Shown: positions 17,501-47,097, counted from the first letter of the stretch. The stretch is 64,000 bases of DNA from Rhizomicrobium sp. (GCA_035761325.1 DASTRG010000179.1:10879-74878), one strand, 5' to 3'. The notes: a model not told the origin generated them from the letters alone. Numbers and translations: made by a program.

Positions 17501-17657
17501 CAGGCCCCAGAAGACGGGGCTTGGCAGGAAGCTGATCGATGACGCGGTCAAATCGGAATTGCGCGGAACCATAGCAATCGATTATGCACCCCCCGGCGTG
17601 AAGGCGCAGCTTTCCATGCCGATCAAGGTTTGGGAGGATGCCCCCGCCGGCCGCTAA
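14508..17657 (+). CDS. CheB methylesterase-CheR methyltransferase-coiled coil-PAS-HWE kinase-like fusion
   Basis: GIGASAGG, THL, TDG (CheB). RIWVPACATGEEAYS, FATDID, ISCRNLLIYF (CheR). ELQSxNEEL heptads, PAS region, HELADNAVRHG, W-x-E-SGGP and GLGRKLI (HWE ATPase domain). Confidence 0.9.
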   Translation: MNSSDYRGLVVGIGASAGGLPALEVFFRGLPRDTGMAFIVVTHLPKDDKGRLHTLLSRCTAMPVTMAIKGESVLPDHVYVCPANQTLTIKNGHVKLAPRGQDLRYFPIDQTFSSVATEYGEYATGILLTGGGTDGTSGLRAIREHGGVTLAQASDGPDPAHKEMPGNAIASNVVDLVLPAEAMGRRLAEFARGAVKRPDVGPAEAPEAADSDAVKTQKQIAAILHDRLKHDFSGYKTAVFLRRVARRMQLLRIAGPDSYIAYLRENTQEPPLLFRDLLIGVTSFFRDTAAFNALKSQVIPKLFQNAAQGEPVRIWVPACATGEEAYSLAIVLREHMETMRAPPPVQIFATDIDETAIEFARSGRYNLSELQNVSTDRLRRYFARNELHCTISKDIRDMCVFSQHSVLENPPFSRLDLISCRNLLIYFGTQLQARVLPLFHFALKPGRYLFLGTSENVSQHPELFTAIDKKNRIYQRRNSALAAHRLLPQTRVSDFTSTTMAGRADAPMTLADLHAQVERRVMERFAPAHVAVNREGDILYYSARTGKYLEAAAGPPSRQLAAMARKELRHDLRAALREAKESGKRAERNGISFEGEGGMWATDLIVEPFGNYENDPLFLVVFRDAGEAGAAKPPSSDSQSRKFNKALGHAEQELAETRRRLQLMVEEYETAVEELKSSNQELQSINEELQSANEEMETSKEELQSVNEELDTVNTELQNRVEELDRANSDLRNVFETTQVAIVFLDAKLAIRTFTPAATAIFKLIPGDRGRPLTDIASNLRDIGDLRRDIQAVCEQKKPIERQVHHVDGRSHYSMRILPYRSERGVIDGALIVFADASRLVECETRQDNLLKEANACIRTFLDAAHRLIREAPTRRLTVEQFMKSFQRRLQALTTGYELSIHANWGSVALSHVVQSALEGYAGQNSKRLSITGPKLFLPAAQAPALVMVMHELADNAVRHGSLSQRGGKIQVSWNIARVRGRDLLRIDWLESGGPEVARPQKTGLGRKLIDDAVKSELRGTIAIDYAPPGVKAQLSMPIKVWEDAPAGR

Positions 17658-18319
17658 TTTCCCGAGCCGGTCCGGCTCGAATTGGGTTTGACAGAGCCGG
17701 AATTGTCCGGTTCTTCGCCTGTTGTGGATTCGCCCGGGAGGCGATCGTCAGGGATCGGTTCAGCGACACTTTCCCGGGCGATGTGTTCGTTGCGTTCGAC
17801 GATCGCTTCCGCTTGTGCGACAATGAACCTGGAGACAGCGAGCTCGATTTCGAATTCCGCGATTCGTTCGCGGATACTGGCCAGGCTGTTGCGAAACTGT
17901 TCGATATCGCCATTTCGCTGCTGCAGTGCCTTGGCGATCAGGCCGCCTTTTGGCAAAGCTGATATGTCTGCCTGGTCGCGATAGGAGAATTTAGGGACAT
18001 AGCCGCCCGCCGGCATGGAAATGACGACGGGATTGTCTGCGCCCTCCTCTTCGTAATAGCGCGCCAGCGCCATCCGCAGCCGCACGGCCTCGACACGAAC
18101 AATGGGATCGGTCGCCGGATCGAAATCATCCGAGCGGCCGAACACCATCGTACCGATGGTATAGCCCTTGATGCTTTCCGCCTGGCCGGCCAGCGTTCGC
18201 TCGACAACGAACTGTAGAAAGGCCTTGAGCCGCGGCGAGGCAAAGGAGGTGCTCCCCAACGCCCGCGCCAGGGCGGCACGTATAGCCTCTGCATCAGGTT
18301 CAGGGCGAGAAGTCTCCAA
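17654..18319 (-). CDS. Hypothetical protein: stand-alone N-terminal domain typical of TolB-like/TPR 'adenylate cyclase-like' proteins plus coiled coil
   Basis: SPRLKAFLQFVVERTLAG...IKGYTIGTMVFGRSDDFDPATDPIVRVEAVRLRMALARYY...GGYVPKF. TTG start is uncertain. Confidence 0.7.
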   Translation of the reverse strand: METSRPEPDAEAIRAALARALGSTSFASPRLKAFLQFVVERTLAGQAESIKGYTIGTMVFGRSDDFDPATDPIVRVEAVRLRMALARYYEEEGADNPVVISMPAGGYVPKFSYRDQADISALPKGGLIAKALQQRNGDIEQFRNSLASIRERIAEFEIELAVSRFIVAQAEAIVERNEHIARESVAEPIPDDRLPGESTTGEEPDNSGSVKPNSSRTGSGN

Positions 18320-18377
18320 AATTGGCCGCCCCCAGATTTCACAACTCTTAATAGAATAGCACCCGTTGCCCCCTGAG

Positions 18378-18405
18378 GTGAATCAAAGATTCACGGCATT
18401 GCCGT
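18378..18405. promoter_or_regulatory. Two adjacent palindromes between galE and the downstream gene
   Basis: GTGAATC-AAA-GATTCAC (18378-18394) and ACGGCA-T-TGCCGT (18393-18405). Confidence 0.3.
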
Positions 18406-19449
18406 TCAAATCGAAAAATTTGGGTGACCCGCGGGCATCCGGAGCGTCATCCGGGGCGGGGCATCGCGGCCGTCCTTGCCCAGCCGGCGTTCCCAGGCGA
18501 GAGCACTGCCAACAATCGTGTCGATGCTGTCAAAGCGCGGTACCCATCCCAGCCGGGCCTTGAGCCGGCTGGGATCGGCCACAACCGAGGCCAGGTCGCC
18601 TGGACGTCGCGGCATCTCGCGAACAGCGAGCCTGCAGCCCGCTGCCCGTTCAACGGCTGTAATGATCTGGCGCACGGAATAACCGGAGCCGTAGCCGCAA
18701 TTGAACACGCCGCTATCGCCACCCTCCCGCAGGTGTCGCAACGCCAGCAGGTGCGCCGCCACCAGGTCGGACACGTGAATATAATCGCGCACCCCGGTTC
18801 CGTCCGCTGTCGGATAATCGGTGCCGAAAATACCAAGATAGGGGGCACGACCCAATGCTGTCTGGCAGGCCAACTTGATCAGATGGGTAGCGCGCGGCGT
18901 CGATTGGCCAGTGCGCCCATCCGGGTCAGCACCGGCAACATTAAAGTAGCGAAGCGCAACATAGCGGAAGGCGCCGGCACGGGCGCCGTCTTCCAGCATC
19001 CATTCGGTCATCAACTTGGAGCGACCATAGGGCGAAGCCGGCACGGTGGGCGCCGTCTCTGCCACGGTCTTGGCCTCGGGCGTTCCATAGACGGCGGCGG
19101 TTGACGAGAAAACGACACGCCGTACTTCGGCATCCGCCACCGTCTCCAGCAAAGTGCGCGTCTCCGCCACATTATTGCGATAGTAGAACAAGGGACGTTC
19201 GACCGATTCCGGAACCACCGCAGCCCCGGCAAAGTGGATCAGCGCGTCGATGTCATGGTGCGCCAGGATTGCGCGAACCAGATGTTCGTCGCCGACACTG
19301 CCCTTGACAAAGGTGCATTCGGGTGGGACCAGCGCGCGCAGTCCCGTCGAGAGATTGTCCAGAACAACGACATCCTCACCCTGTTCGAGCAGCGCCAGGC
19401 ACATATGACTGCCGATATATCCTGCGCCCCCGGTCACCAGCACCGTCAT
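18406..19449 (-). CDS. galE: UDP-glucose 4-epimerase
   Basis: VTGGAGYIGSH, HFAG...ESVERPLFYYRNN, FSSTAAVYG, SPYGRSK (YxxxK), LRYFNVAGA, RDYIHVSDL. Confidence 0.95.
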   Translation of the reverse strand: MTVLVTGGAGYIGSHMCLALLEQGEDVVVLDNLSTGLRALVPPECTFVKGSVGDEHLVRAILAHHDIDALIHFAGAAVVPESVERPLFYYRNNVAETRTLLETVADAEVRRVVFSSTAAVYGTPEAKTVAETAPTVPASPYGRSKLMTEWMLEDGARAGAFRYVALRYFNVAGADPDGRTGQSTPRATHLIKLACQTALGRAPYLGIFGTDYPTADGTGVRDYIHVSDLVAAHLLALRHLREGGDSGVFNCGYGSGYSVRQIITAVERAAGCRLAVREMPRRPGDLASVVADPSRLKARLGWVPRFDSIDTIVGSALAWERRLGKDGRDAPPRMTLRMPAGHPNFSI

Positions 19450-20819
19450 GATGCACCTCTCCCGGCGAACTGGGTGTTGGGCCGGAATCCGGCACGCAGA
19501 TCGGACGGTGAAGTGCGGATCGCGACGGCCGGAAGGCCGATCTCGCGCCAGCGCGGCATTTTCTGCCGCAGGGTTTGCGACGCCGGCTGTCGCACCAGCA
19601 GCGCCAGCGCGCCGGAAAGCGACAGGAGAATGAAGAACCCGTCATAATAGGCCATCGACAGCGCCGCGCCGCCAACGAGATAGCCGGCAATGCTGATCTG
19701 CAACGTGCGCGCCAGGTGACCCGCCCAGTCCATCTCCGGCCTGTCGCGGGTGGCACTGATAACGATGGAGGTATTGAACAGCGCCGCCACTATCAGCATC
19801 AGGTAGAGCGCCAGGCCCATGAAGCCATGGTCGCCCAGCACCTCGAAGTACATGCTGTGCGCCGCCCGTCCCTCCGTAAGTCCGCCAGGCACGCTGTAAA
19901 CCTGTGCCACCCAACTCAGGTCAATTGCCGAGAATCCGCCGCCCAGGAAGCGCAGGCGCGCGATCTCAAAGCTGGTACGCCATGCCTCAACCCGTCCCTC
20001 GAACGAAAGATCCTGGTGGTAGGACTGAATTGTCGACATGCGGTGGAACCAGTCGCCCGGCATCAGGCTCGGCAGCGCGACCAGCAGAAGGGCGCCCAGC
20101 ACCAGGGGCGTCACCCCGGCACGCGTCCGCGCCGCATACACGACCGCCGAGACCGCCAACGCCAGCAATGCACCGCGTGAATAGGTTCCGATGATCGCCA
20201 CCAGCGTCAAACCCATCGCCACCAGAAGAGCCTTCGTCACCAGCGTGGACCGGCTGGTAACGCGCAAATAGTTCATCAACGGCAGGAGCATCACCAGCGC
20301 CAGGCCGAGCTGGTTGTTGTCCTCGATCATCGACTGTGCTGGACCGAAGACGTGGCTGCGCCCGCCGGTCAGAAGGACGAACCCGCCGCCCTTCACGGCG
20401 TAATATCCCAGCGAAACGACTACCACCCAGACCAGTGCCTGGACCCGCGCCTTCGTGTTGACCAGCGCCAGGATGGCAAGCGCCAGGATGACGGTCTTTA
20501 CCGTGCGGTCCCAGATGACAAAGGAATAGGCGGGGTCCAGCGCGTTATAGGTTGTAACGCTGACCCATAGTGCGAACAGGATCAGCATTCCCGTGACCGA
20601 ATTGAGCGGTGCCGTCTTGCGTTCGCGCGAAATCGCCCAGGCAAAAACCGTCAGCAGCGTGATGTAGAAATTTATCTCGAAGCCGTGCAGAAACCCGAAC
20701 ACTTCGCGCTGCGGGTTGAACAGTGTCACCCACGTCCAGGCCAATAGGCCGACCTGCGGCGCACGCAGGATCATCGGCACCAGCCCGGCCAGCGCTACCA
20801 GAAGCAGAAGATCGCGCAT
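19446..20819 (-). CDS. O-antigen ligase/Wzy-like protein, exosortase A-associated putative O-glycosylation ligase type
   Basis: Multi-TM protein with NPQR, DNNQLGLAL, TYSRGALL, GRVEAW, AHSMYFEVLGDHG. ATG 20819 after GGAG. ATGA overlap with galE. Confidence 0.85.
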   Translation of the reverse strand: MRDLLLLVALAGLVPMILRAPQVGLLAWTWVTLFNPQREVFGFLHGFEINFYITLLTVFAWAISRERKTAPLNSVTGMLILFALWVSVTTYNALDPAYSFVIWDRTVKTVILALAILALVNTKARVQALVWVVVVSLGYYAVKGGGFVLLTGGRSHVFGPAQSMIEDNNQLGLALVMLLPLMNYLRVTSRSTLVTKALLVAMGLTLVAIIGTYSRGALLALAVSAVVYAARTRAGVTPLVLGALLLVALPSLMPGDWFHRMSTIQSYHQDLSFEGRVEAWRTSFEIARLRFLGGGFSAIDLSWVAQVYSVPGGLTEGRAAHSMYFEVLGDHGFMGLALYLMLIVAALFNTSIVISATRDRPEMDWAGHLARTLQISIAGYLVGGAALSMAYYDGFFILLSLSGALALLVRQPASQTLRQKMPRWREIGLPAVAIRTSPSDLRAGFRPNTQFAGRGAS

Positions 20820-20967
20820 CACTCCAACAGACGCAGTTGTTCAGAGCAAGGTCGCAAGGCCGTGCAAGACGTGGAATACCCACTGTTTGGCAGTGCAATA
20901 AAATAAACCTCTTGTCCTGGGGCACAGGCCATGAGACCCATTCGACAGCTCCACGCGAGAGGCTGGG

Positions 20968-21225
20968 ATGAGCTCAATTCTGTTCGCCATGGAAGTGGTT
21001 GCCTTTCTTGTGGTGGCCGTCTGGGCCTACCGCAATGATCGGGTTGGAGCCGAGGAAGGCGGCACCGGCCTTTTGGCCTTCCGCTCCGCCAGCGACGCAC
21101 CCCCGGCAAGGCCTCAGCGCTGGCGAAAGGATTTTCGCGCCAAGGGAATTTATGCCCGCCGCAGCGATATGACTAACGCGCCGCAGCCGCGCTGGAAGTC
21201 TCGGCCGGCGCCGCGGCGGTGGTAA
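20968..21225 (+). CDS. Small single-TM hypothetical protein
   Basis: GAGAGG RBS, N-terminal hydrophobic helix ending WAYRND, then GLLAF. Fills the gap divergent from the ligase gene. The 3' end overlaps the convergent GT4. Confidence 0.5.
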   Translation: MSSILFAMEVVAFLVVAVWAYRNDRVGAEEGGTGLLAFRSASDAPPARPQRWRKDFRAKGIYARRSDMTNAPQPRWKSRPAPRRW

Positions 21226-22387
21226 TCAGATCGCGCGCCAGGGCTTCGATACGATTTGCATTGCTTGTCCAGGTGAAGGGGGTTGTTTCCACCGCCCGGC
21301 GCGCGCCGGCGCCCACATGCCGGCGCAATATCGAATCGTGGTAAAGACGGGCCACTGCGCTCGTGAATGACGCCTGGTTTTCCGGCTTGAACAACAGCGC
21401 ACTGTAGCCGTTGACCAGCACTTCGCGAATGTTGGGCTGATCCGGCGCGATGATGGCGCGCTTCAGTGCCATATACTCGAACAGTTTCATCGGCGAGGCA
21501 TAGGCGACCGCGGCAGGTTGCAGGGCCACATCGAAAGCGCGCATATGGGCCGCAATCTCGGCATGCGGCACCCGTCCGGTGAAATGCACCCGTTCCGCCA
21601 CCCCGCGCTCAATGGCCCTTGCCCTCAGTGAGGGCAACGCCGGCCCATTGCCGACGACAAGCAAATGCGCGTCCGGCGGCAGCCCTGCCAGCGCGTCGAC
21701 CGCCCATTCCACCCCATGCCAGGCGCGCACGAAGCCCGCGAACCCCAGCACCACGTCGTTTGGTCCAATGCCGAAGCGGCGCCGGATGGCATTGGCTTGA
21801 GCCTCTCCCACCTTTTGCGAAAGGTCGGCTCCATTGTGCACAACATATATCCGGCCATCGGGACCGCGCACCTGGCGCACCATTCCAGCCAGCACACCGG
21901 TTACAGGCAAGGCGACATCGCAACCTCGCCACAGTGCTGCCTCGCAGGTCCGGGCCAGATATCCCAGCGACAATCCCCCCGCTGCGGCGCGCTCCGCCGC
22001 CAGGGGCGAATTAATTTCCAGAAGCATGGGCAGTCCTCGCCGCCATTTGAGAAGCAGCCCGGCAACCAAATACAGGTTGTAGCGCTCGTAAAGAATGTCG
22101 GGGCGGAAAGCGCGAGCGGCAAGCGACAGGCGCCAATAGGCGGGAATGTTGTAGGTCAGTTCCAGCAACTCGAAAAGAAAGGCCGGCAGATGCCGGCGCA
22201 GCCAGTCCGTCACCGCCTCCAGACGGTCGGTTCCGGTGCCGCGCGATGTCGCGCCTCCCGCCGGGCCAACCACCAGCACGTCGTGGCCGCGCTCCCGCAA
22301 GGCCGCAACGATCTGCTCTATGTGCACGCGCATGCCGTCATTGGCGGCCGTGCGGTGGTGGTAAAGAATACGCAGTGGCCGTGTCAT
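21173..22387 (-). CDS. Glycosyltransferase family 4
   Basis: Start 22387 (MTRPLRILYHHRT), LYERY, LLEINSP, GFAGFVRAWHG, SPMKLFEYMA. Confidence 0.9.
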   Translation of the reverse strand: MTRPLRILYHHRTAANDGMRVHIEQIVAALRERGHDVLVVGPAGGATSRGTGTDRLEAVTDWLRRHLPAFLFELLELTYNIPAYWRLSLAARAFRPDILYERYNLYLVAGLLLKWRRGLPMLLEINSPLAAERAAAGGLSLGYLARTCEAALWRGCDVALPVTGVLAGMVRQVRGPDGRIYVVHNGADLSQKVGEAQANAIRRRFGIGPNDVVLGFAGFVRAWHGVEWAVDALAGLPPDAHLLVVGNGPALPSLRARAIERGVAERVHFTGRVPHAEIAAHMRAFDVALQPAAVAYASPMKLFEYMALKRAIIAPDQPNIREVLVNGYSALLFKPENQASFTSAVARLYHDSILRRHVGAGARRAVETTPFTWTSNANRIEALARDLITTAAAPAETSSAAAAR

Positions 22388-22391
22388 TGGA

Positions 22392-23912
22392 TCAACCCCG
22401 AAACAGGATAAGTGCCTCCGCGAGAAGCATCGCGGCCATGGCTGCCGCGCACAGGGCGCGCCGTGCGATGGCGCGAATACGCGCCAGGACAACGCGCCCC
22501 GCCGTCCAGGCAATGGTCACGCCGAAAAGCAGTATCGGACACAGAAACCAGCTGAGCAATGGCGGGCCCAAAGCTCCATCCGGATCGCCACTGTGCGCGT
22601 AAAGCGCAAGCACCAGGGCGCTGACATATCCGGTGGCCATGCCCAGAAGCGGCAAACTTGTGCATTCCGCCCGCTCCGCCGGCGACTGTCTCAGACCAAC
22701 CCGCACGAGCGCGGCATGACGGTGCCATGCGGCAGCTCCGATGAAGAATGGGGTTGCGAAGGCTATCTGCCAGAAGAAGGGCGTGACACCCAGCACGATC
22801 GCACCCGCTGTCAGCCGGTGCAGATCCAAGGCGGCGAGCCCAAGGACATCCAGCCCCGCCACGCGCTTGAGCCAGAAGGCGTAGGCCAGCGCCAACACGG
22901 GATAAAGCACCAGCCAGCCGGCGAAAACCGGCGACACAATCGCCGCCAGCACAAAGCCCAGGGCCGCGACAAATCCTGCAAGGACCAACGCCCGGTCGAA
23001 TTCCAGATGACCGGAAGCCAGGGGCCGCCGCCGCGTGAGAGGATCGCGGCGGTCTTCAGACAAATGCGCCATGTCGGCCACCAGATCGCTCGCCGCCGCG
23101 ACCAGACACAGGGCACAGAACGCACAGTAAAGCGCAACCAGGCTATGGAAGGCAGGCACGCCAAGCGCGAGCAGCGGAGCAAAAATCAGAAGGCTGCGTG
23201 GCCAGCGAGAGGGCCTCAGCGCGTCCAGCCAGGCAAACGGCCGGCGACGTCGTTCGACCAAGATGTCGGCGGTCTGGCTATTCCAGGTGGGATGGTCCAG
23301 GACACGCGGCGCCGGGGACGCGATTATCGCCCGTCGCGCCGTGGCCCAGGCGGGGATGTCGCACGTCCCCTCCCCCACATAATCAAAACCGGCGGGTCCG
23401 AATATCGAACAGAGCAGCCGCGCGCGGGATGCCGCGCTCAATTCGTGATCGCCGTCGCTGCCGAGGCTGTAGGTAAAAATGCCCAGATAATCGGCAACGG
23501 CGCGCACCGTTCCGTGATAGTCCGCGCCGACCAGGACAAGGGTGCGTCCCCGGGCCCGCTGATCACGCAGAAACCGCAACGTTTCCTGGCGAAATGGCAG
23601 GATGGCTGGATCCATACGGGCCATTTCCCCCAACCTGGCCTTGAGCTGTGCCGGATGACGCCAGGTGCCGAACAGCAGCGGCAACAGCTTTCCTGGCCGC
23701 GTGCACAGAAGGGTCAGCGCAGCTTCCTGGGTAATCCGGCCGCGCACGAGCGCGCCTTCCACCGCCACGCAGAGCGGCACATCCCGGTCCATATCCCCGC
23801 CTTCCAGCCGACGCTTCAGCGCCAGCGCCCGCAGCAGACGCAAGGACGGCGCCCGTCTGGACGCGGGCTGTTCCACAATGATGTTGGGGGCCGGCAGGGG
23901 ATAGGCCGTCAT
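22392..23912 (-). CDS. Degenerate HAD-UbiA fusion (polyprenyl-phosphate phosphoribosyltransferase-like, catalytic motifs lost)
   Basis: Collinear with 45625-47097, but PLCVAVEG replaces PLCVDLDG, RPSRWPRS replaces RPHQWVKN, ADMAH replaces NDATD, and the C-terminal HDDP is missing. ORF intact. Confidence 0.8.
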   Translation of the reverse strand: MTAYPLPAPNIIVEQPASRRAPSLRLLRALALKRRLEGGDMDRDVPLCVAVEGALVRGRITQEAALTLLCTRPGKLLPLLFGTWRHPAQLKARLGEMARMDPAILPFRQETLRFLRDQRARGRTLVLVGADYHGTVRAVADYLGIFTYSLGSDGDHELSAASRARLLCSIFGPAGFDYVGEGTCDIPAWATARRAIIASPAPRVLDHPTWNSQTADILVERRRRPFAWLDALRPSRWPRSLLIFAPLLALGVPAFHSLVALYCAFCALCLVAAASDLVADMAHLSEDRRDPLTRRRPLASGHLEFDRALVLAGFVAALGFVLAAIVSPVFAGWLVLYPVLALAYAFWLKRVAGLDVLGLAALDLHRLTAGAIVLGVTPFFWQIAFATPFFIGAAAWHRHAALVRVGLRQSPAERAECTSLPLLGMATGYVSALVLALYAHSGDPDGALGPPLLSWFLCPILLFGVTIAWTAGRVVLARIRAIARRALCAAAMAAMLLAEALILFRG

Positions 23913-24535
23913 CCCACGGTACTCCCGGCGATGCCAGCGGGTTCCGTGCGGGAGGCGTGCCTCATGCGGGCGGGCGGCGCAATGGCGAAGGTGGGATCTT
24001 GGGCATAGTTGGCGGTCATCGCCCGGATAGGTTCATGCACAGAGTCGTAAGCAGCTGCGACTTCGGGGGAAGGGTCGACGTTCAACAACCTCGCGAGCGC
24101 CCCCCGCGTAAGGGCGGCATAGCCACCGCCCCGATAGGCAGGGCCACTCGCCAACAGAACATAGCCGGCCTGCTTCGCAAGTTCGTCGCGATAGAATTGT
24201 GAGCCGGTCAAGAGATAGGGATAGCTTAGCGATGGTTGACGGCTATCGTCCGGCGTCCATTTGTTGTCAGAGACATAGGCCACACGCAGCGCCGGCGCCG
24301 GCCCTGGTATCCTGACCACGGCGTGACGAACCGACCCGTCCGGCCACAGCGCCTTGGGATCGATTTGCGATTGCGCCGGAATATTGTTCAGGCTGGCCGA
24401 TAGAGCCTTGCCGGGGTACGGCCCTTCGGTCCGGCCCAGCATCAGCACGAGCAACAGCGCGATCTTTGCAGCCGTCAGCAGGCGGCGCCGCCACACCGGG
24501 GCGCATCCCAAGCCGGATACAGTATCCGCGGTCAT
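23909..24535 (-). CDS. Internally deleted mini-paralogue (208 aa) of the secreted protein at 25631-27658
   Basis: Three collinear blocks shared with the large protein (QIDxKA..DGSVRHA; QPxLSY.PYL.TGSQ.YRDEL..QA.YVLL; DPTFAI.PP). ATGA overlaps at both ends. Confidence 0.75.
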   Translation of the reverse strand: MTADTVSGLGCAPVWRRRLLTAAKIALLLVLMLGRTEGPYPGKALSASLNNIPAQSQIDPKALWPDGSVRHAVVRIPGPAPALRVAYVSDNKWTPDDSRQPSLSYPYLLTGSQFYRDELAKQAGYVLLASGPAYRGGGYAALTRGALARLLNVDPSPEVAAAYDSVHEPIRAMTANYAQDPTFAIAPPARMRHASRTEPAGIAGSTVG

Positions 24536-25335
24536 GTATCGTCCAGCAGATCGAGCGCGTGCATGGCGCGCGCAGCAGCGCGGCGCCAAATCTGGCCATT
24601 AATCTCCCACCCATAAGTCTCGTACGCCAGAGTCTGAGGGCTAGGGGGCAAAAGGAAATTGTAGGACGGCGCGCGTCTGAATGCTTCCTGCATGAGCGCA
24701 AAACCCGCCAGCGCCGCGGCCTGCGTCTGGTGGCAGTCCAGCATGGCACGTTTGAGGACAATCTCCCCGGGGTCGAGCTGGAATCGCTCCACGGGCCCGG
24801 CACCGGGGTGGGACATGAACTCGCCATACACCATCTGTCCGTTCGACATGTGATAGCCTGCCATCTCGACAATGCTAGGCACGGGCACGCCCTGTCGTTC
24901 GAGTAATTGGCAGGCGCCGTGAACTGCCAGCGCGGTTGCATCATGGTCGGGGTCGCCGCCCTCATAGGCATGCGTGATGATCGTGGAGAAGGACCCTGCC
25001 CTGAAAAGGCGCACCATCTGGCGCACCAGCCGGGTCAGATGAAAAACCACCCGCTGGTCAGGCAACCCCAGATTCGTCACCGGATTGAGCGGACGGGGCA
25101 GCAGCGAGAGCGCCGCCTCGGCCTCGCGCCTGCGCGCACGGACATAGCGCCAGTTGCTGGAAAGCCCCACGCGCGCGCTCCGACCGTTGCCCGGCACCCC
25201 GCCGGTCACCGTGACCACACCCGCCGTCTCAAGCCGGCTCAACATGGCGCCGGCACCGATCACTTCGTCGTCGGGATGGGCGCTAACCACCAGGGCAGAC
25301 TGATGCGCAGGTTCCGACAGCGGAAACGGCCGCAT
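24532..25335 (-). CDS. PIG-L/LmbE-family deacetylase, variant paralogue
   Basis: SAHPDDE motif. GGDPDHD instead of GGHPDHD. Start uncertain (25335 or up to 25434). Confidence 0.82.
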   Translation of the reverse strand: MRPFPLSEPAHQSALVVSAHPDDEVIGAGAMLSRLETAGVVTVTGGVPGNGRSARVGLSSNWRYVRARRREAEAALSLLPRPLNPVTNLGLPDQRVVFHLTRLVRQMVRLFRAGSFSTIITHAYEGGDPDHDATALAVHGACQLLERQGVPVPSIVEMAGYHMSNGQMVYGEFMSHPGAGPVERFQLDPGEIVLKRAMLDCHQTQAAALAGFALMQEAFRRAPSYNFLLPPSPQTLAYETYGWEINGQIWRRAAARAMHALDLLDDT

Positions 25336-25630
25336 ATCCGGAACGGATCGCAATTGATCATCCTGCCCGTGACTTGCCAAGCCGCGCCCCTGGTCTGGCC
25401 CAGATTGGTTGAGAAGTGACCAGACGACCAACATGTCTCATGTGGTTAAAATTCGACAGAAGACTAAGACGGCCCGGCCTGGTTCCGCGTGCCCAAGACT
25501 GGGTATTCTCTTTGCGGCAGCCTGCTTCTCAGGGTTATCTCATGTAATCAGGCGGCTTCTGGACCGCACTCTGGTCACCCTGGTTCGCCGGTCATCATGG
25601 CAAGGCCGCGTGGCCACTCGAGCCAGGCGA

Positions 25631-27658
25631 CTATTTTCCCGAAACCGTGACCGTATCGGGCGGCAGGATCGCGAAGGTGGGGTCGCCCGTAACCGGTCGG
25701 TAGGTAACTTGGCGGAAGCGCTCGCTGACATACCGATAGGCATTGAGGGCGCGGGGCGAATGACTGGCGACATAAGCTGCGCCGGTCCCCGCCCGCATGA
25801 TCATGCCCAATTCGGTCCAGTTCTCGGCAACCTCCTTGTCCGACACGTTGTTCAACCCACTCTTATTGAAAACTTCCGCCCAATTGTCGAAGCGCTTTTT
25901 GGTGGCTGGATCGTAAACCATGAGTATATAGGTCGCGCCTCGCGACGGATCGAATCCCTGGTTGCCGCTGGTGAAGAGACCGGCGAGGAAATTCGCCATC
26001 CAGCCCGCAACACGTCCCGCTTGCGGATAGCCCATATCGTTGATCCAGTTCAGCGTCACGATGAGAAAGGCATTCTGCCAGGGCGCCGTGGCGCCATCCG
26101 GACGATAATCGCCCGGCATCCAGCCTTCCAGGGCACCAGTATCCTTCATCTTGCCCTGTGCGATCATTGCGTCCGCCAGCTTGGCGAGATTGGCCTTGAG
26201 CTTGGCGTCGAAGTAGGCGTGCAAGGGATAATCGTCGGGAAGAATATAGGCGGCATTGGCAAGTGTACGCAGGGACCAGGCAAGGCCACGAACCTGGATC
26301 CAAGCCTCGACATGCTCGCCGATGAGAACCCCGTGGCTGCCGCCGCGATAATAGGGATCGTAAGACAGAAGCACATATGCGGCCTGGGCCGCGAGCTCGT
26401 CGCGATAATATTGCGAGCCGGTCACCAGATAGGGAAGATATGAAAGCGCCGGCTGATGCGCGTCGTCCAGGGTCCAGCCGTGATTTTCCTGCTGGAACCC
26501 TTCCGGCAGCACGCCGGGTTGAGCCTTGCCGCGCGAATCCAGCCACAATTGGGGGTAAGCATCGATGGTCAGTGGCAAGCCGGTCTTGCGGTCGCGCAGG
26601 TGCCACGGGACCGAGCCAGCCGCATCGGCGTTGGCGAGAAGAAGCTTGCGACTGTCTTCGCTGCCCTCCATCAGATCGACTACCGCCCAGGTCGGCATCG
26701 GCCCGATATCCATGCGGCCGCCGGTATCGGGCATGTGATTGTCGATCGTGCCCTGTTGCATCGGCTCGTCCGACATCTTCCCTGCCAGCCTGGAAATAGT
26801 GGCGGAAATCTCGCCTGCGATGGAAAAGTCCTGCGCATAATGCGGTACCGCCCCTGCCGCGGCCAGCGTCGCAAGATCCGGCTTTACGCGAATGGGCGGC
26901 CCACCATCCGTCCAGAGAAGATGATGCCAATCGGCGAATGTATAATGATAGACACTCTTCGCCTCGAATACCGGCGTGCCCGCCAGCATGATGGCGACAC
27001 TGTATTCCAGATTGTCGTTTCGGCGGATTCCCGTCCAGTCGTTATGGAAAATGACATCCACGCGCTGCGGCCCTTTTCTGGGCGTGAAGACATCGAACAG
27101 GATTTGCAGGTGATCACTGACGTCCGCGCTGTAACGGCGCTCCTGCGCAAGGGGACCGTCTATCCACAGCCGGGTCGATGCATTGCCGGGATCTCGGGCG
27201 ATTTTTTGTAGTTCGATGTCGATTCTGGCGGCGCCCTTGGGCGTGATCGAGACGGTGAGCGCCGGAACAGGCCCCGCCGCGAATGGGGCGGATGCCACCT
27301 GCGGGCCCTTGACCAGGACGCCCGCCAGCTCCTGACCGGACCTGAGCTTGGGCAATTCCAATGTCACGATCGCATGTCTGACGGAGCCGTCGGAATTAAA
27401 AGCCTTGGCATCGATCTGGGTGGCGACGGGATGACCATCGAGCATCGCCTCCAGCCTGTCGCCACGCCGGACCGAGCCGGGAAGAAACACCTGCCCGAAG
27501 CTGATTGTCCGTGCCGGTGATGACGCATCGGCTTCGATCCGGAACGTTCCGACATTGGCCGGGCTCTGCGCGCCGGCCGGCATCATGCTGCCCATGAAAC
27601 CGAACAACAACCCCAGCGCCGCAGGCAACCAGCTGCGGCATCCGATCTTCCAGCTCAT
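25631..27658 (-). CDS. Large secreted protein of unknown function (possible alpha-barrel polysaccharide lyase/hydrolase)
   Basis: Start 27658 with a signal peptide (MSWKIG...PAGAQ). FGQVFLPG, DGSVRHA, MPDTGGRMDIGPMPTW, DDAHQP, QVRGLAWSLRTL. The family link is inference only. Confidence 0.7.
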   Translation of the reverse strand: MSWKIGCRSWLPAALGLLFGFMGSMMPAGAQSPANVGTFRIEADASSPARTISFGQVFLPGSVRRGDRLEAMLDGHPVATQIDAKAFNSDGSVRHAIVTLELPKLRSGQELAGVLVKGPQVASAPFAAGPVPALTVSITPKGAARIDIELQKIARDPGNASTRLWIDGPLAQERRYSADVSDHLQILFDVFTPRKGPQRVDVIFHNDWTGIRRNDNLEYSVAIMLAGTPVFEAKSVYHYTFADWHHLLWTDGGPPIRVKPDLATLAAAGAVPHYAQDFSIAGEISATISRLAGKMSDEPMQQGTIDNHMPDTGGRMDIGPMPTWAVVDLMEGSEDSRKLLLANADAAGSVPWHLRDRKTGLPLTIDAYPQLWLDSRGKAQPGVLPEGFQQENHGWTLDDAHQPALSYLPYLVTGSQYYRDELAAQAAYVLLSYDPYYRGGSHGVLIGEHVEAWIQVRGLAWSLRTLANAAYILPDDYPLHAYFDAKLKANLAKLADAMIAQGKMKDTGALEGWMPGDYRPDGATAPWQNAFLIVTLNWINDMGYPQAGRVAGWMANFLAGLFTSGNQGFDPSRGATYILMVYDPATKKRFDNWAEVFNKSGLNNVSDKEVAENWTELGMIMRAGTGAAYVASHSPRALNAYRYVSERFRQVTYRPVTGDPTFAILPPDTVTVSGK

Positions 27659-28004
27659 TGAGAACCTGCGAATTCCGTCGCCGGCAATCTTAACATGGTC
27701 CAGGTTGGATTTCCCCTGCCAATTGGAGAGGCGCGAGGAATTGTAGGACACTGGTAAAGTATAGGGCGGGCCCGTTTCGATCTGGGCACGGCGCGAATGG
27801 ACTTCCCAGCGACCATTCATTAGACTACGCGGACGTTTTCCCATGTGTTGCAAGAGGGGGGCACAGCATGGCTTGCTGCGGCCAACGCCGTGGAGCTCAG
27901 GCGCCTGAGCATTGTGGATCGAATCACGAAAACACCCCGGCACTTGCTTTTGTCGCGCTTCCCGCTGGTGAGGCCTGCCTGCCAGCGTCTCCCAGAACCC
28001 CTCG

Positions 28005-29024
28005 ATGAACGCAAGCCCGACCTGGCGCGTGAGCGCCATCATTCCGTCTTACAATCGGGCCGATTTTCTGGGTGAAACCATCGCGTGCCTGATCGCTCAA
28101 AATGAACCGGTTTACGAGATCATCGTTGTCGACGACGGCTCGAAGGATGCGACCGCCGAAGTGGTCGCCGGTTTCGGGGACAGGGTGCGCTATCGGCGGA
28201 TAGAAAATTCGGGCGCGCCGGTGGCGCGGAATATCGGCGCGGAGATGGCGACCGGCGATTGGTTGTGGTTCTGCGACAGCGACGACCTCTGGAAGCCGAA
28301 TTTCCTGGCTTCAGTCCGCACCATTGCCGGGACGCCGCCCCATCCGCCGTTTCTCTTCGGGAATTTCCGCCTGGTACGTGACGGAATCTGGGAGCCAGAA
28401 AGCAAATTCGAAACGGCACCCAAGAGTTTCTGGGAGAATATTCCATCCCGCAAGGTTCCGGGCGGAACGATCCTACTCGAGCCCCTCTTTCGGCACATCC
28501 TGTCGTTCCAGCCGGTCTTTCCCTCTACCATCGTGATGCGGAAGTCGCTTTTCGATGCCGTGGGGGGCTTCGACGTCAAATTCGCCCGCACCGCCAGCGA
28601 GGATTTCGAGTTCACGCTCCGCTGCGTCGCGCATGCGCCCATCGGCGTGGTGGACGAAGCGCTGGTCGGCGTTCGCCGCCATGGAGGCAATTTCAGTGCC
28701 AATCAGCTGGCCAACCTCCTGGGCGAAGTCCGCATCCTCAACCATGCCCGACACCATCACGCGGCCGCGGCCCAATTCGCAGAGGAGGTCGACGCCGACA
28801 TCCGCCGCCGCAATGTCGAGGCGCTGGGCCTTGCCTTCAGCGAAGGGCGCTATACGCTGGTCCGTTCCCTAGCCGATGATATCGGCAGACCCAATCTCGA
28901 CGACCGTTCCCGGCTCAAGGTTCTTCTGGCCTCCTGCCCCGAGGCTGTTCGCACATCCCTGTTGGCCCTGATCCGGTGGATCAGGCCGGATGAACGCGTG
29001 CGCAAAAATGAAAAGCCGGGATAG
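28005..29024 (+). CDS. Glycosyltransferase family 2
   Basis: SAIIPSYNR, VVDDGS, ARNIG, FCDSDD, SEDFEF. Confidence 0.92.
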   Translation: MNASPTWRVSAIIPSYNRADFLGETIACLIAQNEPVYEIIVVDDGSKDATAEVVAGFGDRVRYRRIENSGAPVARNIGAEMATGDWLWFCDSDDLWKPNFLASVRTIAGTPPHPPFLFGNFRLVRDGIWEPESKFETAPKSFWENIPSRKVPGGTILLEPLFRHILSFQPVFPSTIVMRKSLFDAVGGFDVKFARTASEDFEFTLRCVAHAPIGVVDEALVGVRRHGGNFSANQLANLLGEVRILNHARHHHAAAAQFAEEVDADIRRRNVEALGLAFSEGRYTLVRSLADDIGRPNLDDRSRLKVLLASCPEAVRTSLLALIRWIRPDERVRKNEKPG

Positions 29025-29045
29025 CGGCGCCATCGCGCCAAGCGG

Positions 29046-29984
29046 CTAGCCTGGCGACAATCCCGCGCGGTCCCGCTTCGCGCCGTGCAGGATTCCCAAA
29101 TAGTAGGCATCACGAATGCTCCACAGGGTCCGCTCCTCGATCGGCCGACCGAGAAGCCGGGATACCAACAATTTGGCCTTGTGCTGGATTACGGCCCTTA
29201 TGATCCAGGGCGGAATCCCGAACCATGTCCGCCGCGGGGGGGTCCGGCTGTGAGTCGAAATCCAATCGGTCACGCCCAATCGGAAATTGCGCTGCCGTAC
29301 CCAGTCCAGTGTATAGCAGTCCCTGGGCACATAATGGTAGATCAGCGCGCCAGGCAGGTAGACCGGCTTGAGGCCGGCCGCGAGAAGCCGCTCCTGCAAT
29401 TCATTTTCTTCGCCGACCGGAGAATTTTTTTCTCCCGTCACGCCCAGATTCTCCGTGAAGAGGCCCACCTGCAAAAGCGCATTCTTGAAAGCTGCCCAAT
29501 TCGCGCCAAAGAAGAACTGGAAGTGCGACGCATCAAGCTCCGATTCAGCCTCACCCAGCGACCAGCCGGCCGCCGAACGAGGCAGAAAGGGCAGAAGGTG
29601 CGCCGGGCATTCGATTTCCGCATCGGGAACCAGCGGACCGCCAAAAAAGTGGCCGGGGCCGAATTTCCGCGCGGCCTCGATATAGGCGGCGATCAGGCTG
29701 GGAGCCACCTGCACATCGTCGTCGAGAAAGATCAGAAAATCCGCATCGCTGGCGCGGATCGCCCGATTGAGGGCCGGCGACTTGCGGGCAGGAGCCGAAT
29801 AGGAGTAGCGCACCCTTCCGCCGGTAGAGAATTTCCGGCAGATCGCCTCGGCGCCGCAAGGCGCACCATTCTCCACTACGTGGATCGTGACGTCGCCGGG
29901 AAGCCCCGTCTGCTCCAGATTGACAAGCAACCGCTCCAAAAAAGCAGGGCGCCTGTAGGTCGGTACGATGATCGTCGTCTTCAT
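29046..29984 (-). CDS. Glycosyltransferase family 2
   Basis: IIVPTYRR, VVENG, ALNRAI, FLDDD, GANWA, GEENEL. Confidence 0.9.
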   Translation of the reverse strand: MKTTIIVPTYRRPAFLERLLVNLEQTGLPGDVTIHVVENGAPCGAEAICRKFSTGGRVRYSYSAPARKSPALNRAIRASDADFLIFLDDDVQVAPSLIAAYIEAARKFGPGHFFGGPLVPDAEIECPAHLLPFLPRSAAGWSLGEAESELDASHFQFFFGANWAAFKNALLQVGLFTENLGVTGEKNSPVGEENELQERLLAAGLKPVYLPGALIYHYVPRDCYTLDWVRQRNFRLGVTDWISTHSRTPPRRTWFGIPPWIIRAVIQHKAKLLVSRLLGRPIEERTLWSIRDAYYLGILHGAKRDRAGLSPG

Positions 29985-30163
29985 GCTGTTCTTCGGCAGA
30001 CCGGTCCGTCATGAGGTCGCGGCAGCGAAATTGGCCCTCACCCCGCCACCTAAGTTAGACTGCCGGGGTCCACTTGGAAATGCGAGTCCCTGGGATTGGC
30101 GTGGCTTGCCAAGGCCGCCGCCATCATGGGAAAAACCGCGGCGAAGGCGGGAAGAGCATCTGA

Positions 30164-30925: not shown

Positions 30926-30948
30926 ATTATCCATTGCAGGAAGGCCCT

Positions 30949-32022: not shown

Positions 32023-32040
32023 AGCCGCCCCGCGCTCGCG

Positions 32041-33128: not shown

Positions 33129-34028
33129 ATGGGGGGATTGGGAATCCGCCGCATACATGCCGCCCTGGACCAAATCGTTCACGATCGCCTTTATTCCGGT
33201 CGCGCGATGGTGGGCGGCCCTGACCGGAACGGTTTTTCCATTGACGATCTTCCGGACGCGTCCGCCCTTTGCGTGGTCGCCCATCCCGACGATGAGATTA
33301 TTGGCGCGGGGTACATGCTGACGCGGCTGCCCACGGCCACCATCGTCCTTGTCACCGACGGCGCGCCACGGGACGGTGGTGCGACGGCACGCGCGGCGGG
33401 CTTCGCCGGTAATGGCGATTACCGGAAATCCCGCGAGAAGGAGGCAGCGGCGGCGCTGGCGCTCACCGGCAATCCGTCCCTTTCCCTTATCCATTTCGCC
33501 GTTCCAGATCAGCAAGCCATTTTCAACGCGACCAGATTGACGCTTCGGCTTGCAGACATCATGCGCCGAGGTAAATTTCGTTATGTGATTACCCATCCCT
33601 ATGAAGGGGGGCATCCCGACCATGACGCAGCCGCTCTGGCAGTACATGCCGCCTGTCTTCTCTTGCGCGATGAAGCCGCGCCCGTCGTCGTTGAGATGAC
33701 GAGCTACCATCTGCTGAACGGAGAGATGGCTTACGGGCAGTTCCTGCCCCACGACAAGGCCGGGGTGGTAAAAACGTTTCTTCTCGACCCGCGAGAGCAG
33801 GCGCTGAAGCGCCGGATGCTTGCCTGCCATCAGAGTCAGAACAAAATACTTGAAAACTTTCCCGTCGATGCCGAGAGGTTCCGCGCCGCACCACCCTATG
33901 ATTTCCTGGACGCACCACATCCCGGTCGTCTGGCTTACGAAACCTTTCTTTGGAAAATCGATGGCGCGGCGTGGCGGCGGGCCGCGACGCGGGTCTTGAA
34001 TCGGCTGGGCCTGCTAAGTAGGCGTTGA
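33129..34028 (+). CDS. PIG-L/LmbE-family deacetylase (canonical motifs)
   Basis: VAHPDDE, VTDG, SREKEA, THPYEGGHPDHD. Start uncertain. Confidence 0.88.
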   Translation: MGGLGIRRIHAALDQIVHDRLYSGRAMVGGPDRNGFSIDDLPDASALCVVAHPDDEIIGAGYMLTRLPTATIVLVTDGAPRDGGATARAAGFAGNGDYRKSREKEAAAALALTGNPSLSLIHFAVPDQQAIFNATRLTLRLADIMRRGKFRYVITHPYEGGHPDHDAAALAVHAACLLLRDEAAPVVVEMTSYHLLNGEMAYGQFLPHDKAGVVKTFLLDPREQALKRRMLACHQSQNKILENFPVDAERFRAAPPYDFLDAPHPGRLAYETFLWKIDGAAWRRAATRVLNRLGLLSRR

Positions 34029-45330: not shown

Positions 45331-45628
45331 GAAAAAGAAAATATCCCAACAAGGCGGTGATGATGAAACTCAGCCCCACGAAAGGATAAGCGAGCGACAG
45401 GTCAGTCCGGGACAGGACATTCAGCCAGATCAATGTTCCGAACCCATACATCGCCAGCCCGGCGATGACAGCGGGGCTGTGGACGAATGCGAGCAGAACC
45501 GATGCGGCCGATCCATCGGCCATGGCGGCGCGGGCCGCCGCCGTGGAGACGCCGTACTTGAACAATACCTGGGCCAAACCCGACAACGAGACGCTGAACA
45601 GGATAAGAAGCAGAAGAGGCGCCGTCAT
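45254..45628 (-). CDS. SMR/EamA-type small membrane protein (ArnE/ArnF-like lipid-linked sugar flippase)
   Basis: 124 aa, 4 TM, AQVLFKYG, LSRTDLSLAYPF, FHEP. ATGA overlap with the UbiA stop. Confidence 0.8.
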   Translation of the reverse strand: MTAPLLLLILFSVSLSGLAQVLFKYGVSTAAARAAMADGSAASVLLAFVHSPAVIAGLAMYGFGTLIWLNVLSRTDLSLAYPFVGLSFIITALLGYFLFHEPFHPGRVAGTVLVVAGVILVARS

Positions 45629-47097
45629 GGAAAACCCCGCAAGACGACGGAATGAGCCATCAGCAGAATGACCAGCATCGATGCGCCGACGATCCATGAC
45701 ACCCAATCACGCGCGGAATACACGATGGGGTCGTCATGCATGTAGCCACGGGTGGTGGACAGCCACAGACGGCATTGCCAGAATAGCATAAGCGGAACGA
45801 TGCCCCAGAGCAGGCCAGGAGAGGCGTACTGCGCGGCCGCGCTTTCCCACTGGACAAACAGCGCTAGCACCAGGCTGGAGGCGAAGCTCGCGCAGCATCC
45901 AAAGGCCAGAAGGACCGATATGTCGCTTGCGCCATAGCCTCGGCGCGCGACTAAGCGGCTGTCGCTCGCCCGAGTTGAAGACAATTCGGCCACACGCTTG
46001 AGAAGTGCAAGTCCGAGAAACAGGAACCCCGAAAAGGCGAGGAGCCATAGCGACAATTCGTGACCGGTGGCGATGCCGCCGCCAAACAGACGGATCGTGT
46101 AAAGCGCGGCGAGCATAAACACATCGACGAGCGGTTGTTCCTTCAGGCTGAGGGAATAGGCCATGGACATCGCCGCGTAGGTCAGGATAACCGCAACGGT
46201 GCCGCTTGCCGCCGCCAGGGCAAGGCCCAGCGCGGCCAGGAGAAACGCGACCATGAGACCGCCGGACAAAGGCAATGCCCCGCTTGCGAAGGGACGCAAG
46301 CGCTTGCGCGGATGCCGACGGTCAGCTGCCAGGTCAGTTGCATCATTGAAGAGATATATCGAGGACGCGGTCGCGCAGAAGGCCAGGAACATCAGCGTGC
46401 CGTTCAACCAATCCCCCAGGTTGGAAACCGCATGGGCGGTAAAGATCGGAATGAATACCAGAAGGTTCTTCACCCACTGATGGGGCCGCATCGCGCTGAG
46501 CAGGGCGCGTAGTGGCAGGGAACGGCCGGGCATAGCCGCCTCCACGGGCGCAAGCCTCTGGGCGCGCGCCCCGATCCTGGGGGAGACATTTACCAGAATG
46601 GCCGATCCCGCTACCTTCCAGACCGCCAGATCGCTGTTGTCGTTTCCCGCATAGGCGAAGCCGCGCACGCCAAAGCGTGCGCAAAGCGCCGCGGCCTTGG
46701 CCGATCCTTTCAGATTGCGTGTTTCATCGGATGCAACGATTTCGTCGAACAGGCCCAGATGATCGGCCACGCCGGCGGCAATATTCCTGTTTGCAGCCGT
46801 CGCAAGCACCAGATAGCGCCCTCCCCGCCGTTCCTTTGCCAGATAGTCCAGCAGCGCCTCATTGTATGGGAGCAGGCCCGGATCGAAGGGAGCGCCAGCC
46901 GCAATCCTTTGCTTGAATGCGGCACGACCCCGGGACAGCAGGGTCACGAATGCCCGCACGAGGCTTCCGTTTCGAGGGTGCGAGGCAAGACCTTCCATAA
47001 GCGTGTCCGAATATGTCAGCGTGCCATCAAGGTCGACGCACAGCGGCAGGGCGCCGCCCGCGGTAATCGGCTCTGTCTTGGGGGCCGCCAGAGTCAT
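45625..47097 (-). CDS. HAD phosphatase-UbiA fusion: polyprenyl-phosphate 5-phosphoribosyltransferase (Rv3806c/NoeC-like)
   Basis: PLCVDLDGTL (HAD DxD), YAGNDNSD, MRPHQWVKNLLVF, YLFNDATDLAADRRHPRKRLRPFASG, RGYMHDDPI. Confidence 0.9.
   Translation of the reverse strand: MTLAAPKTEPITAGGALPLCVDLDGTLTYSDTLMEGLASHPRNGSLVRAFVTLLSRGRAAFKQRIAAGAPFDPGLLPYNEALLDYLAKERRGGRYLVLATAANRNIAAGVADHLGLFDEIVASDETRNLKGSAKAAALCARFGVRGFAYAGNDNSDLAVWKVAGSAILVNVSPRIGARAQRLAPVEAAMPGRSLPLRALLSAMRPHQWVKNLLVFIPIFTAHAVSNLGDWLNGTLMFLAFCATASSIYLFNDATDLAADRRHPRKRLRPFASGALPLSGGLMVAFLLAALGLALAAASGTVAVILTYAAMSMAYSLSLKEQPLVDVFMLAALYTIRLFGGGIATGHELSLWLLAFSGFLFLGLALLKRVAELSSTRASDSRLVARRGYGASDISVLLAFGCCASFASSLVLALFVQWESAAAQYASPGLLWGIVPLMLFWQCRLWLSTTRGYMHDDPIVYSARDWVSWIVGASMLVILLMAHSVVLRGFP

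Follow-up and report, generated by a model that had tools for sequence, protein, structure and literature searches.

When three adjacent genes, linked by overlapping stop and start codons, each resemble a damaged copy of an intact gene in the same locus, the question arises whether they are the remains of a single duplicated module or whether each has a history of its own. Such a trio is found in a 64,000-nucleotide stretch of DNA from Rhizomicrobium sp. (GCA_035761325.1 DASTRG010000179.1:10879-74878), hereafter the window, which is one contig of an alphaproteobacterial metagenome-assembled genome (MAG; G000, 3.1 Mb, 93% complete) and carries a large polysaccharide locus. On the minus strand the gene order is bigA, PIG-L', mini, HAD-UbiA', the glycosyltransferase (GT) gene GT4, a DUF5935/Wzy_C ligase gene and an epimerase gene. 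PIG-L', mini and HAD-UbiA' are open reading frames (ORFs) on this strand, and none has an internal stop. ATGA overlaps join PIG-L' to mini (24532-24535) and mini to HAD-UbiA' (23909-23912), and four nucleotides (nt) separate the TGA of HAD-UbiA' from the ATG of GT4; these features had been described in a first-pass annotation of the DNA and were read here directly from the junctions and ORFs. The annotation regarded the trio as a single "shadow operon" of degenerate paralogues, either a set of pseudoenzymes kept for a purpose or an old duplicated module decaying while coupling to GT4 was preserved. The three paralogies are real (PIG-L' at 50% identity, mini in three collinear blocks, HAD-UbiA' at 32%); neither alternative fits all three genes.

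The explanation favored here, with a probability of roughly 0.7, is that three genes of a conserved exosortase-type operon have each had their own history. PIG-L' would be a resident deacetylase in which a single His was replaced by Asp, at the general-acid position, before the split from its closest relative. bigB, which would have encoded an exported protein of ~690 amino acids (aa) with a PL26-lyase-like fold, may have become redundant in genomes with bigA and then shrunk in this genome, by five separate in-frame deletions, to the mini-protein. HAD-UbiA' would go back to a phosphatase-phosphoribosyltransferase fusion that one lineage acquired between big and GT4. Along a long stem the phosphatase nucleophile would have disappeared, as would the two Mg ligands and the two tyrosines contacting the 5-phosphate of phosphoribosyl pyrophosphate (PRPP); purifying selection would have followed, with a rebuilt loop as the most conserved part. 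Orthology, deletions, selection values, residue changes and co-occurrence were all observed, and they carry the argument.

Relatives were obtained from a protein search with HAD-UbiA' and a scan of GTDB species representatives, after which contigs were compared. The orthologues of HAD-UbiA' are 70-74% identical to it, apart from one with 54%; a sister group, with 43%, has the UbiA motif and HAD motif I intact. The closest relative (L012, MAG ES1.bin.28; 91-95% aa identity) has the order GT2(-) - PIG-L' - bigB (692 aa) - HAD-UbiA' - GT4, which recurs in L009 and L013 (~70%) and, with a shortened HAD-UbiA', in L052 (~54%). L007 and L014 ("Alphaproteobacteria bacterium 64-11" type, ~73%) have bigA - PIG-L' - 185-aa mini - HAD-UbiA' - GT4, and L010 (~43%) has a bigA-type gene followed by a HAD-UbiA gene of the sister type and GT4. 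In the more distant operons of Rhizomicrobium, metagenome contig L065 and Caulobacter segnis, big is coupled straight to GT4, with ligase and epimerase following and HAD-UbiA absent between. Because the order is shared across operons of near and distant relatives, big - GT4 - ligase - epimerase is identified as the conserved core, with PIG-L and HAD-UbiA as lineage-specific additions, and synteny indicates that the trio is resident in a conserved exosortase-type polysaccharide operon, of which it makes up the 5' part. The order of that operon is PIG-L' - bigB - HAD-UbiA' - GT4 - PEP_O_lig - epimerase. The [A/G]TGA overlaps are conserved across the relatives.

The arrangement is not an assembly artefact, because at least ten assemblies, made independently, contain the 208-aa mini and match the window collinearly at 99.8% identity. 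The ten assemblies show 9-20 differing sites over 9.25 kb, one of these in mini. At window position 24174 a singleton non-synonymous difference gives Lys at mini residue 121, a position with Met in the ten other assemblies and in the bigB of L012 and L009.

Neutral decay of the whole trio as an old duplicated module, its open frames being a chance product of high G+C, is hardly credible as an explanation. It can draw on the G+C content of 62-65%, at which long spurious ORFs are common, on altered catalytic residues in all three genes and on the further erosion of HAD-UbiA' in L052. Unlike classical pseudogenes, however, the three genes lack frameshifts and stops, and the ratio of non-synonymous to synonymous substitution rates (dN/dS) is 0.12 for PIG-L' and 0.19-0.24 for HAD-UbiA', with confidence intervals (CIs) far below 1 on branches that postdate the motif changes; it is raised, to 0.37, in mini. 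In addition, orthologues at 70-95% identity are retained in four other genomes, no part of HAD-UbiA' is better conserved than its changed loop, and all seven deletions in the two bigB remnants are in frame. The first-pass annotation had proposed that intact or differently broken copies in close relatives, together with a dN/dS near 1, would indicate simple pseudogenization. Copies of both kinds exist for mini, although its ratio is not near 1, whereas the ratios of PIG-L' and HAD-UbiA' point the other way.

Erosion of bigB to the mini-protein

The mini-protein matches the product of bigA in three collinear blocks of 62, 50, and 47% identity, and it had been taken for a shrunken copy of that upstream 675-aa paralogue. 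This origin is ruled out by comparison with the closest relative: over its retained parts mini is 85% identical to the L012 bigB, vs. 37% overall to bigA. Its N-terminus matches the bigB of L009 and L012 and not bigA, and L012 has the intact 692-aa bigB at mini's position. From these alignments it is concluded that mini represents a recent remnant of bigB.

In the DNA alignment to L012 bigB the window lacks 105, 84, 744, 3, and 516 nt (484 of 692 codons), and the blocks that are retained are 85-94% identical. In L007 the 185-aa remnant arose independently, through losses of 1518 and 3 nt. Every one of these seven deletions has a length divisible by three, for which the chance expectation is (1/3)^7 = 5e-4. 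A mutational or sampling accident, with no selection for coupling behind the pattern, is nevertheless conceivable, since there are just seven events in two lineages, two of the deletions have 7-8 nt of microhomology and an out-of-frame variant occurs on a short contig (see below). It is judged very unlikely: with that variant included, seven of eight in frame still has a probability of ~0.003, and the HAD-UbiA' of L052 adds two in-frame losses that preserve the stop-4 nt-ATG junction.

What the deletions spared is as informative as what they removed. The window remnant keeps its ATGA start overlap, an N-terminal signal/transmembrane (TM) helix and the 3' end with the Shine-Dalgarno (SD) sequence and ATGA for HAD-UbiA'. 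The window and L007 remnants have in common just ~31 N-terminal and ~74 C-terminal residues, and these shared ends hold the start of the remnant, which overlaps the PIG-L' stop, and the SD and [A/G]TGA for HAD-UbiA', elements conserved in all relatives. The SD itself, GGGAG, stands ~10 nt 5' of the HAD-UbiA' ATG and is likewise conserved. As a protein, mini has fared worse. A family alignment of 50 sequences has 70 invariant residues, 49 of which are deleted in mini; H410 is replaced by R, and the conserved DDAHQP..SYLPYL motif is damaged by an H-to-R change and by deletion of one Leu of SYLPYL. With L012 bigB as partner, the dN/dS of mini is 0.37 (CI 0.23-0.61), ~3-fold above that of the intact L012 and L009 bigB at the same 208 codons (0.12, 0.07-0.18). 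Polarization by an outgroup assigns 22 non-synonymous and 17 synonymous changes to the window branch, and 6 and 8, respectively, to the L012 branch.

The predicted structure of bigB (predicted local distance difference test, pLDDT, 92; predicted template modeling score, pTM, 0.90) is a confident one and comprises a beta domain and an alpha/alpha domain besides the signal/TM helix; the top-ranking fold match was PL26 exo-rhamnogalacturonan lyase (E 2.5e-6). Like PL26 PcRGLX (PDB 5XQG), bigB has an N-terminal RIFT-barrel Pfam domain above the cutoff (PcRGLX_1st, 23.6 bits; cutoff 22.1) and is modeled as a beta domain plus alpha/alpha barrel, but TM-scores are low (0.26-0.43) and identity is ~10%, a likeness at the level of fold. 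Of this architecture mini has fragments only (13.3 bits). When the retained segments were mapped onto the bigB model they were found to come from three separate domains, and the model indicates that mini cannot rebuild the bigB fold. No protein family resembling mini was found in 5.8 billion proteins. Some members of the wider "big" family (P0060, P0061, P0075-P0080, and others) carry C-terminal RTX calcium-binding repeats (PF00353), which by analogy with the secreted exopolysaccharide glycanases of rhizobia suggests type I secretion of these proteins.

The retained pieces might still make up a new, small membrane-anchored protein that, for example, regulates bigA or the assembly machinery or partners with either of them. 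In keeping with such a role the same 31 N-terminal and 74 C-terminal residues persist in both remnants, dN/dS is below 1 in both (0.37, and 0.19 for the L007 remnant), the frame is kept, and 20 of the 21 family-invariant residues within the retained segments of mini are intact. The idea is nonetheless quite unlikely, as translation initiation on the remnant and on the gene after it requires precisely these shared ends, while the middle parts retained by the two lineages are wholly different. The damaged motif, the threefold rise in dN/dS, a fold that cannot close from pieces of three domains and the lack of any such family in the proteins searched also speak against it.

Most likely, then, mini is a translated spacer that preserves coupling to the downstream genes and not a working protein. 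It would persist because a frameshift or stop in it would uncouple translation, with polar effects on the four genes that follow (HAD-UbiA', GT4, ligase and epimerase); only losses that preserve the frame would therefore have been fixed. We infer this coupling function, with GT4 as a downstream beneficiary, from the overlaps, the position of the SD and the in-frame character of the erosion; the HAD-UbiA'/GT4 junction is kept in relatives. A precedent is comEB-comEC of Bacillus subtilis, in which the comEB product is dispensable and its translation feeds ribosomes to comEC (bioRxiv 10.1101/2020.12.30.424838). Like comEB, mini lies inside an operon, overlaps or adjoins the start of the next gene and probably has a dispensable product; unlike mini, a shrinking remnant, comEB is intact and its coupling has been demonstrated by experiment. 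The proposal of decay with coupling preserved therefore holds for mini, which has an intact copy in the closest relative, a different remnant elsewhere and a raised dN/dS, but not for its two neighbors. The locus offers a natural time series of a redundant gene vanishing from a coupled operon, in intact, five-deletion and differently cut states. Should this be borne out, in-frame erosion would serve as a recognizable mark of polarity constraint, and would caution that small ORFs annotated as "hypothetical" within operons can be translated spacers.

Descent and remodeling of HAD-UbiA'

HAD-UbiA' is 32% identical (E 1e-42) to HAD-UbiA2, a canonical fusion of polyprenyl-phosphate phosphoribosyl synthase and phosphatase (PRP-PPPRS) encoded elsewhere in the window. 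HAD-UbiA2 matches Rv3806c (PDB 8J8J; E 3.7e-27), has all motifs intact and is adjoined by two GT87 genes. A fusion of this kind, ORF15, belongs to the three-component pentofuranose system of Citrobacter youngae O1 (PMC11127046). Like ORF15 and Rv3806c, HAD-UbiA' has an N-terminal HAD domain and a C-terminal UbiA fold of nine TM helices. It scores 39.5 bits against Pfam UbiA (PF01040; cutoff 34.2, profile positions 5-225 of 250), its HAD domain is below the cutoff, and against NCBIfam NF006088 it reaches 306.3 bits (cutoff 351), compared with 561.3 bits for HAD-UbiA2. Unlike those enzymes, it has the nucleophile, the Mg ligands and the 5-phosphate tyrosines replaced, and it is flanked by a lyase-like bigB remnant and GT4 where the three-component systems have a flippase and a GT-C enzyme. 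The window does contain a canonical system of this type, at 45625-49919, in which the GT87 pair accompanies HAD-UbiA2.

The changes affect both domains. HAD motif I, DxDGT, reads AVEGA in the window (23751-23765) and [AG][VL]EGA across the clade, with no Asp. The UbiA motif Y..ND..D...DR.H has become D..AD..H...DR.D, within the remodeled loop SDLVADMAHLSEDRRD (23043-23090). Mapped onto Rv3806c, the replacements are Y70D, N73A (S in relatives), D77H, H84D, and Y157D, and K87 is variable. In Rv3806c, N73 and D77 are Mg ligands, Y70 and Y157 contact the PRPP 5-phosphate and K191 is essential (PMC10994848); in the degenerate clade the K191 position is occupied variously by H, Q, or R. The protein had been described as "motif-less", which is correct as to the altered HAD and UbiA motifs but overstated otherwise, for the basic cluster of R22, R90, and K143, Y138 and two of the three Asp of the first UbiA motif remain. 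Elsewhere in the family such changes are rare. The canonical UbiA residues are kept in 36 of 37 other members from many phyla, the exception having Asp for the His after DR, and HAD motif I, readable in 35 of the 37, is an exact DxDGT in 30, has both Asp in 4 more and an Asn nucleophile in 1.

Despite these losses HAD-UbiA' is under constraint. For every pair, and for each domain, its dN/dS lies at 0.19-0.24 (CI 0.15-0.35), equal to that of GT4 (0.17-0.19); the intact paralogue HAD-UbiA2 has 0.09, with synonymous divergence (dS) saturated. An antisense ORF at 22593-24008 was considered as a cause of the low ratio and rejected, as family homology lies in the sense frame; with a G+C content this high, antisense ORFs of that kind are commonplace. 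In the family tree the six degenerate sequences are monophyletic (support 100/100), with a stem of 0.99, a short crown and the L010 type as sister. The two window copies fall in separate clades, so their paralogy is ancient. Conservation peaks in the rebuilt loop, where 80-90% of residues 271-300 are invariant within the clade vs. 58% overall, and the replacement residues D70, H77, and D84 are invariant across the five crown-clade sequences.

Members of the sister group (L010:10001-11560 and P0007) keep DxDGT and NDxxD, have Asn at the K191 position and carry a HAD motif IV without Asp (GQKSSGLGLW). The departure from the canonical enzyme seems to have been stepwise, and would have begun before the degenerate clade, because the L010 type is already without K191 and the acidic HAD motif IV.

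Taken together, tree and selection values show that in the window's clade HAD-UbiA' is not a relic but a protein under selection, with a presumably non-canonical function, whether as a pseudoenzyme or as a re-tooled enzyme. Since catalytic residues are lost and purifying selection persists, it would serve a purpose other than making polyprenyl-phosphate-ribose. Its most likely role, which we infer from the residues lost and kept, is that of a non-catalytic membrane subunit, a scaffold binding either partner enzymes or the polyprenyl-phosphate carrier. The earlier suggestion of kept pseudoenzymes thus applies to HAD-UbiA', with a dN/dS of ~0.2 after degeneration and its loop best conserved, but not to mini or PIG-L'. 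It is rather unlikely that HAD-UbiA' is an enzyme with a new donor lacking the 5-phosphate, the Tyr-to-Asp and Mg-ligand swaps having re-tooled the pocket and made the phosphatase unneeded. The invariance of D70, H77, and D84, the conservation of the loop, the retention of pyrophosphate-binding R22, R90, K143, and Y138 and a long stem followed by a slow crown would suit such a functional shift, but the K191 position and K87 vary, no flippase or GT-C enzyme is coupled, and the gene is eroding in L052 and absent from related operons. The broader proposal that a phosphoribosyltransferase gave rise, in this clade, to re-tooled membrane transferases or to subunits that bind polyprenyl phosphate is likewise tentative and rather unlikely. 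An obligate partnership with HAD-UbiA2 was rejected as a requirement, because in MAG G043 the degenerate copy was found and an intact one was not detected, with incompleteness of that MAG a caveat. No description of a UbiA-fold pseudoenzyme was found in the open literature. A small HAD-UbiA clade without any hallmark of phosphoribosyl transfer, still under selection, is a defined target in the search for one, and HAD-UbiA' would, if this reading is true, be a new activity or the first UbiA-fold pseudoenzyme in exosortase-type polysaccharide assembly.

The deacetylase and the extra block

PIG-L' belongs with the PIG-L/LmbE deacetylases (PF02585; MshB, BshB) by a full-length match (67.5 bits, cutoff 28.2; profile positions 1-128 of 129), an AHPDDE motif (read as SAHPDDE, 25264-25281) and the second, metal-binding His of HPDH. 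It differs from them in the first His of that motif, which is Asp (D161), giving DPDH at 24943-24954; in MshB this His is the general acid or oxyanion residue. A search of PDB sequences with PIG-L' gave no match. Orthologues at the same operon position in L012, L007, L009, and L052 are 65-95% identical. DPDH occurs in the window and L012 only, while L007, L009, L052, L010, and PIG-L2 have HPDH, so the replacement would be older than the window-L012 split and older than the presence of PIG-L2 in the window. It is rare: among the nearest representatives of 50% clusters with a readable position, 148 of 149 keep the His and the remaining one has Asp. The window and L012 copies, both with Asp, give a dN/dS of 0.12 (CI 0.06-0.21). 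No second PIG-L homologue was found in the L012 genome.

The label of degenerate paralogue is accordingly right for PIG-L' insofar as a motif has changed, but there is just one catalytic change, and the protein scores like PIG-L2 (70.5 bits), to which it is 50% identical (E 9e-75). By alignment and selection values PIG-L' appears as a rare active-site variant of an otherwise normal, strongly constrained enzyme, probably still active or altered in activity. Its start, placed earlier at 25335, is more probably at 25434; the 33 extra N-terminal residues are conserved in three relatives, and 25335 is an internal Met. A 185-aa cluster representative (P0153) is 93% identical to PIG-L' residues 1-152 and unrelated beyond, a frameshifted or chimeric variant.

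The intact paralogues have a narrower distribution than the trio. In whole-genome searches bigA was found only in the two genomes that carry a remnant (G000 and G043) and was absent from G041 and G042, which have intact bigB; PIG-L2 has the same pattern, G000 and G043 only. Homology to relatives without bigA ends at ~25510, the edge of the bigA-containing block. The bigA of the window and that of L007 are 89% identical, with a dS of 0.42; across the GT2b-GT2a-bigA block dS is 0.39-0.53, compared with 0.60-0.99 for the operon genes. These values, about half those of the adjacent operon, suggest later exchange of the block, which may have arrived more recently or may go back to an ancestral polymorphism with reciprocal sorting. 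The block at 28005-34028 (GT2a, GT2b, bigA, PIG-L2) is common to the window and the L007 genome only. On this evidence PIG-L2 is not the source of PIG-L', and the trio does not derive as a duplicated module from the intact genes, since bigA and PIG-L2 are confined to the two extra-block genomes and the two HAD-UbiA copies diverged long ago. For two of the genes, the intact copy lies in an extra block that only some genomes have, and may be the newcomer; the label "degenerate paralogue of intact neighbor" can thus mask opposite histories. With one intact member per genome of a pair of 43%-identical paralogues, bigA and bigB resemble cases of reciprocal loss or xenologous displacement, but unlike plain reciprocal loss bigB has been caught mid-erosion in two lineages and constrained inside a coupled operon.

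Several observations count on the other side of the balance. The reciprocity of bigA and bigB rests on four MAGs of imperfect completeness, and the dN/dS values are pairwise estimates (NG86, Nei-Gojobori), approximate at dS ~1. Some residual function of the mini fragments is possible because of the dN/dS below 1 and the intact residues among those retained; the deletions may be too recent to have erased the signal of constraint. A 1023-nt JGI contig (L067), L012-like, has an out-of-frame deletion of 256 nt in bigB, so frame-breaking variants do arise, and in a 1069-nt ENA contig (L068), also L012-like, the match to L012 ends ~440 nt into bigB; both may be minor strain variants or assembly breaks. 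The HAD-UbiA' of L052 (L052:10001-11302, 433 aa) has lost 8 codons in the catalytic loop and ~66 near the C-terminus, in frame and with the stop-4 nt-GT4 junction kept, at a dN/dS of 0.28-0.44, and more distant operons are without HAD-UbiA altogether. Because it is eroding in the one case and absent in the others, its function would be dispensable in some backgrounds. Intact HAD-UbiA2 was not detected in G043, a possibly incomplete MAG with the degenerate copy.

Neighboring features of the window

The features discussed are listed in Table 1. Downstream of the trio, the best NCBIfam match of GT4 is the PEP-CTERM/XrtA-system glycosyltransferase TIGR04063, below the cutoff. The ligase, in contrast, scores 395.6 bits against TIGR03097 (cutoff 188), and its position is conserved in every related operon; the start of the epimerase overlaps its end by ATGA. 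A scan of 18000-28200 for promoters and terminators gave the same counts as shuffled sequence.

Table 1. Coordinates of the trio and of associated features in the window.
Feature	Position	Strand	Basis
NAD-dependent epimerase/dehydratase, last gene of conserved core	18406..19449	-	Pfam Epimerase E 1.6e-58
PEP_O_lig_1 (DUF5935 + Wzy_C), exosortase-A-associated putative O-glycosylation ligase	19446..20822	-	TIGR03097
GT4 glycosyltransferase	21173..22387	-	Pfam GT4/GT1 domains
HAD-UbiA' (506 aa; PRP-PPPRS fusion derivative)	22392..23912	-	Pfam UbiA, NCBIfam NF006088, site mapping
Mini-protein (208 aa; bigB remnant, PL26-like exported family)	23909..24535	-	DNA alignment to L012 bigB
Mini deletion junctions	24420/24419, 24312/24311, 24279/24278, 24221/24220, 24133/24132
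PIG-L' (PIG-L deacetylase family, 300 aa; probable start)	24532..25434	-	Pfam PF02585, orthologues at same operon position
Leader 5' of PIG-L', 76 nt, conserved	25435..25510	-	Local alignments to L012, L009, L007
bigA (675 aa), intact paralogue of bigB, 43% identical	25631..27658	-	Whole-genome searches, alignment
PIG-L2, intact HPDH motif, part of extra block	33129..34028	+	47-50% identity to PIG-L' orthologues
HAD-UbiA2, canonical PRP-PPPRS	45625..47097	-	NF006088, PDB 8J8J

Besides the canonical HAD-UbiA and its two GT87 neighbors, the rest of the window holds an ABC transporter pair, further glycosyltransferases, an acylation cassette and an asparagine-synthase-type amidotransferase. A small ORF on the plus strand (20968-21225, 85 aa, one hydrophobic helix) is antisense to the 3' end of GT4 and the GT4-ligase interval, and an ORF of 80-92 aa is called at this site in every related operon examined (L006-L011, L052, L066). 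After the epimerase, on the minus strand, lies an ORF of 221 aa (17654-18319) with no family match; its position is kept in L007 and L009, and it is 73% identical to the L007 copy.

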